Source: Candidatus Woesearchaeota archaeon (GTDB lineage Archaea; Nanobdellota; Nanobdellia; Woesearchaeales; DSVV01). Taken from it: a DNA stretch of 10,437 nucleotides. The position numbers and the translations under genes were made by a program. The notes beneath the pieces are model-generated. The model saw only the letters and a program-made list of their open reading frames with translations. It did not search any database and was not told the DNA's origin. Below are positions 3,437-8,457 of this stretch, piece after piece. The DNA is taken from contig JBDRKY010000082.1 of assembly GCA_043813525.1 (NCBI GenBank), positions 1 to 10,437 on the forward strand. Reading direction: 5' to 3'. Numbering within the stretch: the first letter of the stretch is position 1; every line of letters starts with the position of its first letter.

Positions 3437-5332
3437 TCATTTCTTCTCCGCAAGATCAATAACACCATCTAATTTTTTTATCTCATTTATAATATCTTTC
3501 AATGCAATCGTATTATTCATCTCAACACTCAATGTGGTAACAACACTATCTTTCTTAGGTTTGGTGGTCACATTTTTAATATTAAGCCCGTAAGTAGCAA
3601 TAAGATTGAGAACATTTGCAAGAATACCTATCTTATCTTCAAGACTCAGATTTAATTTAATCACTGGAGATGTTCTCTGCTCTATCCATAAGACAGGCAC
3701 TTCTTTGTTCTTATCAAGAGAATATATATTTGGACAGTCTTTCTTATGCACTGTGATTTTTTTATCTTTTGTGTAAAAACCAATGATAGGATCCAATAGT
3801 TTAGGATTGCAGCATTTAGATATCTTTAACGGCGCTTTCTTGCCTACAATCTGGATACGCCTTGATAAATCAACAGGTAATTCTGATAAATCTTTCTTCT
3901 GCTGATCTATATCCATATTCAATATAGATTTTATCTTGCTTCTTGCCTTGTTGGTCTTTACAAATTTTAACCATTGACGGGAAGGCGTTGCATTCTTATT
4001 CACAATAATCTCTATGATATCTCCAGAATCAACAGCAGTCTCCAGAGGGACAATCTTATTATTGACAAGAGCCTTAGAACAATGATTGCCAATATTTGTA
4101 TGAACCATGTAAGCAAAATCAACAGGAGTAGAACCACCAGGCAAAGTAATAGGATCACCTTTTGGGGTAAAAACAACAATCTCATCCTCGAAAAGATCAA
4201 TCTTCAAAGTTTCAATGAATTCTGAAGAATTGCTTGCTAAATTTCTCCATTCCAACATCTGTTTCAGCCATGATATCTTCTTATCAAACAGTTTATCACG
4301 TTCAGTGCCATGATAACGCCAATGCGCTGCAACACCATCCTCAGCAATATGATGCATCTGCTCTGTCCTTATCTGAAATTCCAAAATCTTGCCTGAATCA
4401 GTAATCACAGTAGTATGCAAACTCTGATAACCATTTGATTTTGGCACAGAGATATAATCCTTGAACCTATGTGGAATTGGCTTATTATGGTCATGTATCA
4501 GACCTAAAGCAGCATAACAATCAGGAATAGTCTTTGTGATTATCCTAATAGCAATAAGATCATAAATCTCATTAAAGCCAACATTCTTCTTTTTCATCTT
4601 TTTATAGATACTATAGAAGTATTTTGCACGGCCAGACACATCAGCAGATATATTTTTATCATTAAGGCTTTTTTTTATTGATCTAATAAGATCTTGAGTA
4701 TGTTTTTCACGCTCATTTCTCTTTTCAGCAATCTTGCTTGCTAAAAACCTATAAACATCAGGCTCAATATACCTAAGGGATAAATCTTCCAACTCACCTT
4801 TTACCCTCCACATGCCAAGCTTATGAGCGATAGGAGCATAAATCTCTAAAGTTTCCTTTGACACGCGTTTCTGCTTATCCTTAAGCAATACTTTCAAAGT
4901 TCTCATGTTATGAAGCCTGTCAGCAAGCTTGATCAGCATAACCCTTATATCCCTTGCTGTTGCGATGAGAATCTTCCTTAAATTTTCTGAAGTATAATCT
5001 TCTTTATTATCAAAATGCACCTTGTCAATCTTTGTGACACCTTCAACAAGACCTGCTATCTCACTGCCAAAAATACTGTTGATCTTTTCAATGCTGATAG
5101 AAGTGTCCTCAACAATGTCATGAAGCAAAGCAGCACATATTGTAGCTGAATCTGCTTTCAGATCAAGAAGGATATTGGCAACTTCAATAGGATGTGAAAA
5201 ATACTCTTCACCACCAACTCTCTTCTGGCCTTTGTGAGCTTTTTCTGCCAAGACATATGCTTTCTTGATTAAAGCGACATCTGCTTTTGGATTATATCTT
5301 AATATTGTTTTAATAAGTTCAGATAATCTCAT
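3437..5332 (-). CDS. Long bifunctional RelA/SpoT homologue (Rel-type (p)ppGpp synthetase/hydrolase) of about 631 aa, with HD hydrolase, synthetase, TGS, CC and ACT domains
   Basis: The N-terminal HD domain carries HP...LLHDIVEDT. The synthetase domain has GRAKYFYSIYKKMKKK, EIYDLIAIRII, YQSLHTTV and EFQIRTEQMHHIAE. The TGS region reads VFTPKGD...LPGGSTPVDFAY.VHT.IG, there is a KCCNP Cys motif, and the C-terminus is ACT-like. The probable start is ATG 5332 (MRLSELIKT...); the listed 5338 codon is TTG. The TGA stop at 3437-3439 lies 17 nt upstream of the MAP2 ATG. Confidence 0.9.
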   Translation of the reverse strand: MRLSELIKTILRYNPKADVALIKKAYVLAEKAHKGQKRVGGEEYFSHPIEVANILLDLKADSATICAALLHDIVEDTSISIEKINSIFGSEIAGLVEGVTKIDKVHFDNKEDYTSENLRKILIATARDIRVMLIKLADRLHNMRTLKVLLKDKQKRVSKETLEIYAPIAHKLGMWRVKGELEDLSLRYIEPDVYRFLASKIAEKRNEREKHTQDLIRSIKKSLNDKNISADVSGRAKYFYSIYKKMKKKNVGFNEIYDLIAIRIITKTIPDCYAALGLIHDHNKPIPHRFKDYISVPKSNGYQSLHTTVITDSGKILEFQIRTEQMHHIAEDGVAAHWRYHGTERDKLFDKKISWLKQMLEWRNLASNSSEFIETLKIDLFEDEIVVFTPKGDPITLPGGSTPVDFAYMVHTNIGNHCSKALVNNKIVPLETAVDSGDIIEIIVNKNATPSRQWLKFVKTNKARSKIKSILNMDIDQQKKDLSELPVDLSRRIQIVGKKAPLKISKCCNPKLLDPIIGFYTKDKKITVHKKDCPNIYSLDKNKEVPVLWIEQRTSPVIKLNLSLEDKIGILANVLNLIATYGLNIKNVTTKPKKDSVVTTLSVEMNNTIALKDIINEIKKLDGVIDLAEKK

Positions 5333-5338
5333 CAACAA

Positions 5339-5469
5339 TAAGTATAGATAAGAGATTTATAAATCTTTTCTCCGAAAAATTTATAAATGAATGTTGACAG
5401 GATAAAATCAGTAATTAATCAACCATTAAAATTAAATAAGCTTAAATTGCAAAAAAAGAGGTGTTTAGT
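5339..5469. promoter_or_regulatory. Divergent intergenic or promoter region with two copies of the palindromic TATA-like box ATTTATAAAT (5355-5364, extended to GATTTATAAATC at 5354-5365, and 5379-5388)
   Basis: The region lies between the minus-strand RSH gene (start 5332) and plus-strand gene A (start 5470). The first box is 23-32 nt upstream of the RSH ATG, consistent with a leaderless mRNA. The second box could serve the plus-strand operon. The SD AGAGGTG sits at 5457-5463. Confidence 0.35.
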
Positions 5470-6048
5470 ATGAGATTTTCAAAGAATGCATCGCTGAACC
5501 TATCAGTAAATGCGATAGTTGTGTTTGTACTTGCGTTTTCTATGCTTGGTGTAGGATTGTATGTCACAAACCTTATCAGAGAGAATGTCGGTAGCGGAAT
5601 CACATCTGTTGTAAATATCCAAGACCTTAAAAGCCCGCCTTCTGCAGAAGACCCAATCACTGTTTCCAGAGAAATCACCTTGAAAAAAGGCAAAGAGATT
5701 AAGATTGATATTGGTTATTATAACAAAAACACAGAAGAAGCAACAAATGCAAAGATTGGAATTGGAGATTGTATAAAACCTGATGGCGAACAACTGATAC
5801 TTGAAGGTGGTGGTACCTCAGATGATGCATTGTTAGTAGTTTCTCCATTTGCAAAATCAGTAGGAGCAAGCGAAGGAAAAGGATACAAAGTAAAAATTGT
5901 AGATAACTCTAAAAATACAGGTGATCCATTGACAACAGGAAGTTATGTATGTACAATGATTGTATTTGACCCTGCATTAGGAACAGGATGGGGATCATAT
6001 GATGAACCATATGAATCAAAACAATTCTTCCTGAATCTAGTATCATAA
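5470..6048 (+). CDS. Secreted or surface protein A (192 aa) with a pilin-like (class III / type IV prepilin-like) N-terminus; function unknown
   Basis: The SD AGAGGTG is followed by 6 nt and then ATG 5470; the listed GTG 5461 lies inside the SD. The N-terminus MRFSKNA-SLNLSVNAIVVFVLAFSMLGVGLYV is short and basic and then runs into a hydrophobic helix of about 24 aa. It is followed by a Gly/Thr/Ser-rich, probably beta-rich domain with two Cys. No recognisable catalytic motif is present. Confidence 0.5.
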   Translation: MRFSKNASLNLSVNAIVVFVLAFSMLGVGLYVTNLIRENVGSGITSVVNIQDLKSPPSAEDPITVSREITLKKGKEIKIDIGYYNKNTEEATNAKIGIGDCIKPDGEQLILEGGGTSDDALLVVSPFAKSVGASEGKGYKVKIVDNSKNTGDPLTTGSYVCTMIVFDPALGTGWGSYDEPYESKQFFLNLVS

Positions 6049-6076
6049 ATTAATTTATCAAAAAGAGGTGATGATT

Positions 6077-6328
6077 ATGGCAAAAACAAAAAAATCAAAT
6101 GAAAGCAAAGCAGGAAAGAAAAAACTAACTGAAGACCAGGAATTTGAGATTATGAAATTAGTATTAGACAAATTTCTGTGGCTGGGATTTGCAATAATGG
6201 GTGTTGGATTCTTTGTTGCAGTATCTGGCGGATCTTTGTTCAACGCTGTATCTTACTTAGTAGCAGGAGCAGTTGTGCTAGTATTGTTTATGATCCTGAT
6301 TGTGAGAGAATACGAAATAATAAAATAG
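6077..6328 (+). CDS. Small two-TM membrane protein B (83 aa) with a Lys-rich cytoplasmic N-terminus
   Basis: It uses the same SD geometry: AGAGGTG at 6064-6070, then 6 nt, then ATG 6077. It has two hydrophobic helices, FLWLGFAIMGVGFFVAVSGG and AVSYLVAGAVVLVLFMILIV, and shares the GVGFF motif with genes A and D. It lies 28 nt downstream of gene A. Confidence 0.5.
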   Translation: MAKTKKSNESKAGKKKLTEDQEFEIMKLVLDKFLWLGFAIMGVGFFVAVSGGSLFNAVSYLVAGAVVLVLFMILIVREYEIIK

Positions 6329-6364
6329 GTGCTTTAGTGTTAGGGTTAGGTGCTAAGAGTTAAT

Positions 6365-6390
6365 AGTTTGTACTCAAACTTTTTGTTCTT
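6365..6390 (+). terminator. Hairpin plus T-tract, AGTTTG-TACT-CAAACT-TTTTGTTCTT, probably a terminator after genes A and B
   Basis: A perfect 6-bp stem with a 4-nt loop is immediately followed by a T-rich run. It is preceded by two copies of TAGGTGCT (6326-6333 and 6347-6354). Confidence 0.35.
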
Positions 6391-6435
6391 AACATCCAGC
6401 ATCTAAAAGCTAACACCTGATTAAAGGTGATAATA

Positions 6436-7233
6436 GTGAAGAAAAAAGTTTTTATATTTTTTAGTATCATAATTCTTTGTATGGCTCTACTGATAATTGC
6501 AGGTTGCGGAGGAGAAAAGGAGTGCAGGGAAAACTCAGACTGTTCTGCAGGCAGCTGCTTTGATGTGAAATGTGAAGATAATAAATGTATAAAGACAGCA
6601 CAGCCAGACTGCTGCGGCAACCTGATGTGCGAATCTGAAGCTGGAGAAAATTCATGCAATTGCAAAAGTGACTGCAAAAAACCAAAATGTGAAGGTAAAT
6701 TTGTAGTAAAAGAAAGGGGAAGCAAAAAATATTATGGAGAATATCTTGAATATATGTGCAAAGATGATAAATGCATGCTCACATTCGATGAAAAATCAGT
6801 CAAGAAAATTCCACTCCTTAGTGAAAAAACAATAAATAATGTTAATCTGGAATTAGGTGTCACATTCAACAAGCCATTTGATATGACTAACGATAAAGTG
6901 ATGATTGCATTAACACTTAAAGATTATGATCAAAATAAGGCAAAGATGCCATTCACTGTCAAAAGCATCAAGATAATGGATGGTGACCTGCTCTATGGAC
7001 AGACTAACACAAATAAAGAGCTTGTACAGATTGGCGCTGGGATAAAAGAATCTGTTCCTTTAACTTTAGATCCAGAATCAAAAGAAGAAGAAAAATCATT
7101 GACATTGAAAGTTGATTATGAAATGACAAAGATTAATTCCAAAGGAGAAGAAGAGCTAATAAGAGATAGTTTTGTTGAAAAGTTCTCACAAAAAATATTT
7201 TTGATTGTGACAGGTGAGGCTGATTTAGAGTGA
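6436..7233 (+). CDS. Cysteine-rich secreted lipoprotein C (about 265 aa from GTG 6436; the ORF track starts at GTG 6427)
   Basis: The SD AAGGTG at 6424-6429 is followed by 6 nt and then GTG 6436, giving MKKKVFIFFSIIILCMALLIIAGC. That is a basic n-region, a hydrophobic h-region and a lipobox-like IAGC. The following approximately 65 aa contain about 16 Cys (CGGEKECRENSDCSAGSC...CCGNLMCESEAG.NSCNCKSDCKKPKCEGK). After that comes a beta-rich domain of about 170 aa with no recognisable motif. Confidence 0.5.
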   Translation: MKKKVFIFFSIIILCMALLIIAGCGGEKECRENSDCSAGSCFDVKCEDNKCIKTAQPDCCGNLMCESEAGENSCNCKSDCKKPKCEGKFVVKERGSKKYYGEYLEYMCKDDKCMLTFDEKSVKKIPLLSEKTINNVNLELGVTFNKPFDMTNDKVMIALTLKDYDQNKAKMPFTVKSIKIMDGDLLYGQTNTNKELVQIGAGIKESVPLTLDPESKEEEKSLTLKVDYEMTKINSKGEEELIRDSFVEKFSQKIFLIVTGEADLE

Positions 7234-7868
7234 GAAAGGGAAAAAAGAACAGGATAAGAAAAAATAAAAAAGGATTTGAACTAAGCATCAATTTCATAGT
7301 TATGATGATACTTGCTTTAGTAACATTAGGTGTTGGCTTCTTCTTTGCAAAGAACATATTCAGCCATACTATAGATATAGGGGAGCAGCTTGATGCACAG
7401 ACAAAGACACAGATAGAATCTAAATTAAGGGATCCAGCATCTTTAGTAGCAGTTGGCCTTAACAGAAAGGTAATAACTAGAGGAGATCATGATACATTTG
7501 GTATTGGTGTTGCAAACAGGAACAGTAAAAAAGGATATTTCTATCTCGAAGTTTCATGCAAACTTGGTAATTTTAAAAATAAAGAAGGTGTAAATGAAGA
7601 TCTTCCTGTCTTATGCCAAGAAGAAGAGACATGCTGTAGCAAATGGATACAGGCAGAAAAAAAAGGAGAAAACTTATTCAGGATTGATGTAGGTGAACTT
7701 AATCCTACTGGATTTGATGTTGGAACATTATTCTTTAACATAGACAAGAAAGCCAAACCAGGATTGTATGTTTATGATGTACAAGCAAAGAGAACTGATG
7801 CAAAGATGGGTGAACAGGGAAAACAAAGCTATGATTCTGTAAAGAAGATATATGTTGAAGTTCCTTAA
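7230..7868 (+). CDS. Class III signal peptide (archaeal type IV pilin-like) protein D, 212 aa
   Basis: The GTG start overlaps the gene C stop as GTGA (7230-7233), which implies translational coupling. The N-terminus MRKGKKNRIRKNKKG|FELSINFIVMMILALVTLGVGFFFA has the KKG-then-hydrophobic-helix architecture of archaeal prepilin peptidase substrates. The extracellular domain has 4 Cys. An oligo-T tract follows the stop. Confidence 0.5.
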   Translation: MRKGKKNRIRKNKKGFELSINFIVMMILALVTLGVGFFFAKNIFSHTIDIGEQLDAQTKTQIESKLRDPASLVAVGLNRKVITRGDHDTFGIGVANRNSKKGYFYLEVSCKLGNFKNKEGVNEDLPVLCQEEETCCSKWIQAEKKGENLFRIDVGELNPTGFDVGTLFFNIDKKAKPGLYVYDVQAKRTDAKMGEQGKQSYDSVKKIYVEVP

Positions 7869-7950
7869 ATTACCTTTAATTTTTCTTTTGATCTTACACA
7901 GATAAATAAACAATAATATTCTATTAAAATAAAAAAAATAAAAAAAAGCA
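7869..7950. terminator. Bidirectional oligo-T terminator region between convergent genes
   Basis: On the + strand TTTAATTTTTCTTTTGATCTT follows gene D. On the - strand the complement of the A-runs at 7921-7946 gives TTTTTTTTATTTTTTTTATTTT immediately after the 4-TM gene stop at 7951. These are archaeal-style T-tract terminators. Confidence 0.45.
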
Positions 7951-8331
7951 TTAAAACAACAGTAGAAGTGGTGTTAATAGTAAACCCAACACAATAGTCA
8001 ATAATATCCCTACAATGATAGACAATACTGCCCATACTAACCATGTCAGAATTCCAGTTTTCCAATCATAGTTATACTTTGTTTTTACCAACCAAATACC
8101 TACAATCAAACCCAGAAAACCAGAGAGAGGAATTGCAATCCCAAATGCACCTAACAGACTAAGTACAAATCCAATAGCAACTACAATCAAATTTACATTA
8201 AATGCGGTTTTCCATGAAGTATCTGCTCCCTTCATAATCTTAACAGCCCATGTCAGCAGATATGCCCCTAAAAAAAGCATTATCACACTTGAAACAATGG
8301 TTGTTACCAATGCTGCTAAAACAAATGCCAT
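7951..8331 (-). CDS. Hypothetical integral membrane protein, 126 aa, with about four TM helices
   Basis: The start is ATG 8331, with SD AGAGGTG followed by 7 nt upstream. There are four hydrophobic segments separated by short loops (KIMKGADTSWKTAF and KTKYNYDWKTG). No recognisable family. Confidence 0.55.
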   Translation of the reverse strand: MAFVLAALVTTIVSSVIMLFLGAYLLTWAVKIMKGADTSWKTAFNVNLIVVAIGFVLSLLGAFGIAIPLSGFLGLIVGIWLVKTKYNYDWKTGILTWLVWAVLSIIVGILLTIVLGLLLTPLLLLF

Positions 8332-8457
8332 ATTTTTTCACCTCTTTTATTAAATAGTTTATTTAATGAAGTTAAAAGTTTATTAGTATAAATAATTTGT
8401 GGTATGCTTTTTATATAAACTTTAAAGATTAAGATTATTTAGAGTTCTTGATTATCT

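Follow-up and report, generated by a model that had tools for sequence, protein, structure and literature searches.

The four small genes A to D at positions 5470-7868 of a contig of Candidatus Woesearchaeota belong, as our comparison of related loci indicates, to an envelope operon that is conserved in DPANN archaea of the Woesearchaeota type and has A-B-D as its invariant core. Judged by their alignments, A and D are distant paralogues, and both carry N-termini like those of archaeal prepilins. Our first-ranked explanation is that A and D are pilin-like surface subunits with B as a dedicated membrane partner and any assembly machinery encoded elsewhere, and we consider it about evenly poised between right and wrong. 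The window analysed here is the entire 10,437-bp contig, which comes from a metagenome-assembled genome (MAG). An earlier sequence-only reading of the window had proposed four co-directional open reading frames (ORFs) with N-terminal membrane segments. All four are present, in agreement with their hydropathy, as follows:

5470-6048, forward strand: gene A, ATG start, 192 amino acids (aa), NCBI ABIG89_05370
6077-6328, forward strand: gene B, ATG start, 83 aa
6436-7233, forward strand: gene C, GTG start, 265 aa, NCBI ABIG89_05380
7230-7868, forward strand: gene D, GTG start, 212 aa, NCBI ABIG89_05385

Conservation of the module

We collected 30 loci by scanning GTDB species genomes with an alignment of A, all of which are DPANN, and 79 further loci by scanning metagenomes with a more distant A subfamily. 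The architecture was tallied using hidden Markov models built for A, B, C and D in the 62 loci in which no contig end interrupts the module. The order A-B-D is found in 51 of these 62 complete loci, with A identities down to about 29%, and the orthologues of each of the four proteins are matched at E values of 1e-30 to 1e-160. The following architectures were observed, where x stands for another protein in the slot between B and D:

ABD: 16 loci
ABCD: 12 loci
AAB-x-D: 6 loci
ABDD: 4 loci
AB-x-D: 4 loci
AABD: 4 loci
ABCDD: 3 loci

The core has one to three copies of A, then B, and one or two copies of D. One locus cut by the contig end (L072) has four A-like genes 5' of B, and L016 (1124-5215) carries the module plus extra copies in the order A-B-C-D-A-B-A-A. 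Conservation of the neighbourhood, which the sequence-only reading had named as a check, is thus observed in related genomes. Its four-gene module is a conserved unit there, but the core has three genes and the fourth is lineage-specific.

In the contigs found by exact protein matches, the four-gene set is flanked by a convergent TIM gene on one side and by RelA/SpoT or ribosomal protein L10e/L16 on the other, and the A proteins there are only 38-51% identical to that of the window. An important envelope function of the module is suggested because the gene order, and usually the position next to TIM, are kept across much divergence. The same synteny bears on a different explanation, i.e. that the module is a mobile, viral or defence cassette that happens to encode membrane proteins. 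It does encode four small uncharacterised proteins, and a transposase lies a few kb away in one related contig (L006). However, the position beside TIM and RelA/SpoT or L10e/L16 is shared by lineages at 30-80% identity, and the GC content of the module resembles that of the remainder of the contig. No match was found in PADLOC, only sub-threshold ones in PHROGs, and none in a tblastn search of phages made with A only. A cassette of this kind is hardly credible to us.

Some of the loci carry third-party annotation (TPA) titles naming 'Methanosarcinales' or 'Saccharibacteria' (L015, L016, L018, L020, L023, L024, L026, L029, L033, L034 and L037). These names are probably wrong because the gene content looks like that of Woesearchaeota/Nanoarchaeota.

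A and D form a large unnamed family

The N-termini of A and D align in BLASTP with an E value of 2e-5. Comparing the A-family and D-family alignments using hhalign gives a probability of 97% and an E value of 7e-11 over the first ~90 residues, and the homology extends through the first strands of the A fold. A word-index search found 39 homologues of A, every one from Woesearchaeota, Nanoarchaeota or Nanobdellota MAGs, and 9 of D. In the alignment of the A homologues, LSVNAIV, A22, C101, Y159 and C161 are invariant and the mean column identity is 35%.

We searched a profile of the common N-terminal ~97 residues against 1.84 billion representatives of clusters at 50% identity. At E<=1e-3 the search gave 2,723 clusters, of which 881 reach E<=1e-10, and the length is 88-225 aa in all of the best 150 clusters. 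We regard the A/D family as large and unnamed because of this number of clusters and because a Pfam scan of 120 members gave no family match save four isolated weak immunoglobulin-like (Ig-like) ones. The absence of known domains from A-D, claimed from the letters of the window, holds at the Pfam and NCBIfam thresholds, below which only noise was seen (PA14, DUF728, Nodulin_late, DUF6693 and thiS).

A second tandem D copy in L007 (12143-12667) has its leader (MKGASLQLS...) out of frame with the remainder of the gene. Either this copy is a pseudogene with a frameshift or the assembly is wrong there.

Prepilin-like N-termini and a conserved helix

The features of the two N-termini in the window are:

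A, forward strand: leader MRFSKNA; predicted processing site A7/S8 (KNA/SLNLSVNAIV); invariant helix SLNLSVNAIVVFVLAFSMLGVGLYV (from sequence and alignment)
D, forward strand: leader MRKGKKNRIRKNKKG; predicted processing site G15/F16 (KKG/FELSINFIV); helix FELSINFIVMMILALVTLGVGFFF; globular domain with 4 Cys (from sequence)

We applied the signal criteria as summarised in PMC4371748 and counted the motifs in 179 A/D-family proteins. The residue at -1 is Gly, Ala or Ser in all 179 (A7 in A and G15 in D of the window), and the residue at -2 is Lys or Arg in 167 of them (93%), e.g. K14 in D of the window. The leaders are short and basic, with a median length of 7 residues, the +1 residue is mostly S (105) and otherwise D (28), A (21) or F (8), and 25-38 residues separate the site from the first charged residue. 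A polar position in the helix at about +6/+7 is Asn in 146 of 167 proteins and otherwise Q/T/E/S/G/D. Hydropathy (Kyte-Doolittle, 19-aa windows) gives a single N-terminal segment, at residues 15-33 in A and 22-40 in D, with peaks of 2.3-2.6. The predicted sites also resemble the known processing sites of archaeal pilins, i.e. KGQ, KAIS, RALS and RAVS (PMC4371748). By these counts the A/D N-terminus fits the published archaeal class III signal rules, except for the -2 residue of A in the window.

The helix is better conserved than the rest of the protein. The mean pairwise identities of the helix region and of the rest are 0.82 versus 0.33 for A, 0.57 versus 0.39 for D, and 0.64 versus 0.24 for the broad set. 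As far as alignments can tell, this asymmetry is the pattern seen in pilins. Both the class-III-like N-termini of A and D and the conservation of their hydrophobic N-termini in orthologues, on which the sequence-only reading had relied, are borne out by these numbers.

We predicted the structure of A with AlphaFold2 (AF2) from 36 sequences. The model has a predicted local distance difference test score (pLDDT) of 87 and consists of a helix at residues 11-44 (34 residues) followed by a nine-strand beta-sandwich bearing the invariant Cys101 and Cys161, i.e. the modelled ectodomain of A is Ig-like with two invariant Cys.

It could also be argued that A and D are soluble Sec-secreted proteins, whose class I signal would be cut by signal peptidase I to release them into the medium or the surface-layer (S-layer) space, since Sec signals, too, begin with a basic N-region and continue with a hydrophobic stretch. 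However, the hydrophobic segment has at least 25 residues, roughly double the typical Sec h-region, and AF2 shows one continuous 34-residue helix. The length of this segment and its conservation, the highest in the protein (82% versus 33% identity), make a disposable signal peptide unlikely. We consider secretion as soluble proteins very improbable.

The leaders are often lost by gene callers, e.g. the D orthologues in L005 (11735-11776) and L007 (11578-11619) begin at internal codons. The public NCBI model of C likewise starts at an internal ATG and has 250 aa, omitting positions 6436-6480 of the window. Such wrong start codons would hide the lipobox and the class III context from annotation pipelines, because the public and automatic models begin downstream of them.

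B is an obligatory partner with two transmembrane segments

B is the best-conserved member of the module (36 orthologues aligned) and always lies between A and D. It consists of a Lys-rich cytoplasmic tail, an invariant amphipathic juxtamembrane stretch QEFEIMKLVLDKFLWLG and a hairpin of two transmembrane (TM) segments. Hydropathy gives two segments, as had been proposed from the letters. The residues K14, E22, I25, V29, L30, K32-W35, G37, I40, M41, G44, G64, L68, F71 and E78 are invariant in 17 diverse sequences. B has no match in Pfam, PDB, PADLOC or PHROGs. We considered whether B is a Flp-type pilin or a PilC fragment, and rejected both: it lacks a G/xxxxEY motif, spans the membrane twice and is far too small for a platform.

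C and other proteins in its slot

C is predicted to be a lipobox lipoprotein and appears to be a lineage-specific accessory component. It has a signal at residues 1-23, and the lipobox I21-A22-G23-C24 closes its sole hydrophobic segment. PMC12462473 gives the archaeal lipobox as [L/V/I] at -3, [A/S/T/V/I] at -2, [G/A/S] at -1 and C at +1, and reports that AliA and predicted lipoproteins are widespread among DPANN. The lipobox (IAGC in the window), which the sequence-only reading had pointed out, recurs in 19 of 19 full-length orthologues. That reading had also counted about 16 Cys in about 65 aa. The total of 16 is right, but the density was slightly overstated: one Cys lies in the signal, one in the lipobox, 12 in residues 30-85 and two at 108 and 113. 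The mature protein has two regions:

C residues 30-113: Cys-rich region (14 Cys)
C residues ~127-255: beta-sandwich

The orthologues have 13-19 Cys per copy. In the C model the pLDDT is below 50 in the Cys-rich part, and therefore we make no claim on the fold of that part. The best hit of the PDB profile search with C, Crov539 (E 0.013), is a repeat-like artefact. In L029 (9908-11488), C is a double-length fusion of two units with 527 aa and 26 Cys.

Of the 51 ordered loci, about 40% have C, and elsewhere its slot holds a bPH-like membrane protein or nothing. The protein x of another DPANN subgroup is conserved, has ~190 aa and two TM segments, and gives a weak sub-threshold match to bPH_2 (E 0.003). 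It is found at L057 11320-11889, L054 10743-11312, L063 1555-2127, L089 1805-2386 and L070 4259-4840.

Pilin-like subunits or a static membrane complex

Three observations lead us to rank the pilin-like explanation first: the -1 residue, after Lys or Arg at -2, is invariably Gly, Ala or Ser; the helix is much better conserved than the rest; and A and D have multiplied in tandem, as is typical of pilin loci. On this view, Sec would insert A and D in an N-in, C-out orientation, and their leaders would be cut by a PibD-type prepilin peptidase encoded elsewhere. The A/D helices could then pack together and with the B hairpin through Asn-mediated and small-residue helix contacts. The resulting complex might sit in the membrane as the base of a short fibre, either a pilus or pseudopilus-like, built by a type IV filament machine encoded elsewhere; alternatively, A-B-D might remain a heteromeric membrane complex. 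In both cases the Ig-like domains, and C where present, would be displayed on the surface for binding. Peptidase processing, the packing of the A/D helices with B, surface display and any filament are what we infer here. A life attached to other cells is assumed for DPANN archaea, whose surface proteins are almost entirely uncharacterised. A role of the module in host attachment, as suggested by the sequence-only reading, would be speculative.

Several observations weigh against the pilin-like explanation. The A protein of the window carries N6 at -2 and a Lys at -3, a deviation shared by 11 other family members, and the -2 position has been described as critical for archaeal prepilin peptidases. 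The model of A has a pLDDT of only 64-72 at residues 31-50, between the helix and the sandwich, and therefore gives no support for a pilin-like packing of the helix on the sandwich. Structure searches return generic Ig-like folds only and do not retrieve pilins, and sequence profile searches of PDB with A and D found no significant chain. Neither A nor D matches the pilin and archaellin models (Class_IIIsignal, Pilin_N and Arch_flagellin; arch_flag_Nterm of NCBIfam) at E<=10, and known pilin or archaellin families are unmatched in 120 relatives at E<=0.01. We know of no pilin operon with an obligatory two-TM partner. The prepilin architecture claimed for A and D from the letters therefore stands as to the signal motif, but not as to a pilin family match or the retrieval of pilins in fold searches.

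The pilus machinery is missing from the neighbourhood, which counts on the same side. We scanned the flanks of 117 loci, about 1.2 Mb covering ~10 kb around the module, with regular expressions for Walker A (G.[TS]GSGK[TS]T) and GxGD[..][KR]. No ORF with a secretion-ATPase Walker A or a GxGD peptidase motif was found in these flanks. The P-loops met there are of ABC/UvrA type only, and no flanking ORF besides A and D has an N-terminal class III motif. T2SSE, T2SSF and Peptidase_A24 are not recorded in the five Pfam-annotated contexts spanning the full module. The pilus-associated system envisaged by the sequence-only reading thus found no support near the module, with no ATPase, platform or prepilin peptidase in 117 loci, and its interpretation is partly supported overall. 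We take the absence from the neighbourhood as weak evidence against a pilus, because filament systems have been reported in DPANN and known pilin genes sit away from pilB/pilC. Type IV filament systems (system 1, Aap-like, 4A) are described in some DPANN (bioRxiv 10.64898/2026.04.22.720090), and the Haloferax volcanii genes pilA1-6, which have a common H-domain, are located away from pilB/pilC (PMC4371748). Our literature search on Woesearchaeota pili or PilB found nothing specific.

The main alternative, which we consider possible though less probable than pilin-like subunits, is a static envelope complex. A and D would be uncleaved type II signal-anchored proteins whose helices are bundled with the B hairpin in a fixed pseudo-periplasmic scaffold, comparable in role to the S-layer-binding FlaF/FlaG (ArlF/ArlG), and C would be a lipid-anchored accessory. 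Such a complex agrees with a module in housekeeping surroundings, usually single per locus, with an obligatory B whose TM and juxtamembrane residues are invariant, and with 117 loci lacking pilus machinery nearby. A buried Asn is a classic driver of TM helix association, and both helices have one. The large sequon-rich, C-terminally anchored surface proteins encoded just past the adjacent TIM in 8 loci suit a static complex as well, as does the A protein of the window without Lys or Arg at -2. However, a plain anchor needs neither the universal Gly, Ala or Ser at -1 nor the Lys or Arg found at -2 in 93% of the family, both directly before the helix. The tandem A/D copies with their fast-evolving globular parts suit pilin loci better than a fixed stoichiometry, and no sequence match to FlaF/FlaG or to the archaellin Pfam models was found.

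We also considered that A-B-D is a self-contained DPANN-specific organelle without a type IV pilus ATPase, i.e. a pilin-derived attachment or bridge apparatus for host contact, which would work differently from pilins, would be core to Woesearchaeota-like symbionts and would have gone unrecognised until now. The Asn-containing helices of A and D and the B hairpin would form the membrane structure, and the Ig-like heads together with C or other inserts would touch the hosts. We regard such an organelle as rather unlikely.

Should A and D prove to be genuine substrates of a prepilin peptidase, they would represent a pilin family new to archaea, with an obligatory two-TM partner that has no precedent; otherwise they would represent a new kind of membrane-anchored surface complex. 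The module also exposes systematic start-codon errors in public annotations and offers targets for new family models.

Genomic setting of the module

The contig encodes housekeeping genes of archaeal type, i.e. L37ae, Pcc1, prefoldin beta, RpoP and methionine aminopeptidase, together with a long bacterial-type RelA/SpoT, TIM, an MscS-like channel and a band-7 protein. Non-coding features around the module are:

5347..5393, no strand assigned: AT-rich, palindromic region of TTTATAAA type, located between A and the divergent relA/spoT-like gene, with inverted repeats I3 and I4
5453..5463, forward strand: Shine-Dalgarno-like (SD-like) box AAAAAGAGGTG, 6 nt 5' of the A start codon, direct repeat family D1
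6060..6070, forward strand: SD-like box AAAAAGAGGTG, preceding B, direct repeat family D1
6329..6435, forward strand: B-C spacer of 107 nt with a stem-loop at 6365-6380, a T-run at 6380-6384 and an AGGTGAT SD 5' of C

From its sequence we infer that 5347..5393 is a candidate archaeal promoter region with TATA box and B recognition element (BRE). A sigma-70 promoter scan gave a signal at the level of shuffled sequences, and this type of scan is irrelevant to an archaeon. Repeated motifs had been taken as a hint of a surface system. The repeats before A and B do exist, but they are the SD-like boxes, and apart from these the repeats in 5300-8400, whether direct or inverted, are short matches at chance level. 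The RNA of the B-C spacer folds with -30.4 kcal/mol (z -2.7 versus shuffles), and the spacer sequence is not conserved in relatives. Its hairpin with TTTTT may be a partial terminator or attenuator separating A-B from C-D. The GTG start of D overlaps the stop codon of C (GTGA), an arrangement by which C and D are translationally coupled. Rfam and tRNA scans of the window found no RNA gene.

Directly upstream of A, a divergent gene (3437-5338, reverse strand) encodes a full-length bacterial-type RelA/SpoT homologue (HD_4, RelA_SpoT, TGS and ACT). Equivalents are found at L001 6126-8024, L004 1089-2990 and L005 7957-9867, and the synteny holds in 10 related loci. This suggests a (p)ppGpp enzyme that is stable in this Woesearchaeota lineage and was probably horizontally acquired, because it is syntenic in these loci and of bacterial type on an otherwise archaeal contig. 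A strongly hydrophobic membrane protein of 126 aa is encoded between D and TIM (7951-8331, reverse strand). It gives a sub-threshold match to DUF7473 (23.8 bits versus a cutoff of 27), and it is missing at this place in several relatives.

A cluster of large surface proteins lies just past TIM in 8 loci (L006 13560-18044; L013, L016, L023, L024, L032, L036 and L037). These proteins are anchored at the C-terminus, have lengths of ~640 aa (with many N-x-S/T sequons), ~250 aa and ~630 aa (the last matching DUF11), and may be S-layer or envelope glycoproteins. Proteins with sigma-70 r1_2, r2, r3 and r4 are encoded a few kb from the module at L001 16542-18179 (545 aa) and L005 19070-20482 (470 aa). 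Bacterial sigma-70 regions on Woesearchaeota contigs are unexpected in archaea.

Comparison with known systems

By motif and architecture, A and D come closest to archaeal type IV pilins, e.g. H. volcanii PilA1-6, Sulfolobus AapA/B and UpsA/B, and Methanococcus Epd, which they resemble in their short charged leader, their -1 residue and, apart from A of the window, their -2 residue. They also share the long conserved H-domain, predicted to be retained after processing, a variable globular part (a beta-sandwich in the model of A), the tandem paralogues and, possibly, genes that sit away from pilB/pilC (PMC4371748). Unlike these pilins, A and D have no detectable sequence or specific fold kinship to a known pilin family, they always occur with a two-TM protein, and no machinery is linked to them. 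The pilins of EppA (Epd) type differ further: the +1 residue of A/D is S, D, A or F and not Gln, and at about +6/+7 they have an Asn (rarely Glu) instead of an acidic residue or Glu at +5. We do not assign A and D to a named pilin family because their sequence membership was tested and none was found.

FlaF and FlaG, whose genes lie near each other, are monotopic paralogues that each combine a hydrophobic N-terminal helix with a beta-sandwich ectodomain. A and D are likewise paralogous monotopic membrane proteins encoded close together, with helix and beta-sandwich modelled in A. FlaF/FlaG (ArlF/ArlG) are described as an envelope-anchoring complex of the archaellum (PMC4425475). In contrast, archaellin, ArlH, ArlI and ArlJ are not near our module in the annotated contexts, where the neighbours are RelA/SpoT, TIM and ribosomal proteins. 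A and D have no Pfam match, and B and C have no counterpart in the archaellum.

Sets of minor pilins or pseudopilins such as GspH-K and FimU-PilVWX are encoded in small operons of paralogues with a common N-terminal helix and are thought to form a fixed heteromeric complex and not the bulk of the fibre. Our module, compared with them by motif only, is similarly a conserved small operon of pilin-like paralogues. It differs in its archaeal host, in having only two paralogue types and a two-TM partner, and in showing no homology. Like archaeal lipobox lipoproteins of the AliA/AliB pathway, C has a Sec-type signal that closes with a lipobox in all of its orthologues, whereas its mature part (the Cys-rich region and the LEA-2/Ig-like sandwich) matches none of the described lipoprotein families. 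Set beside these systems, the module would appear to represent a pilin-like family new to description, with an unprecedented fixed two-TM partner and lineage-specific accessory genes.

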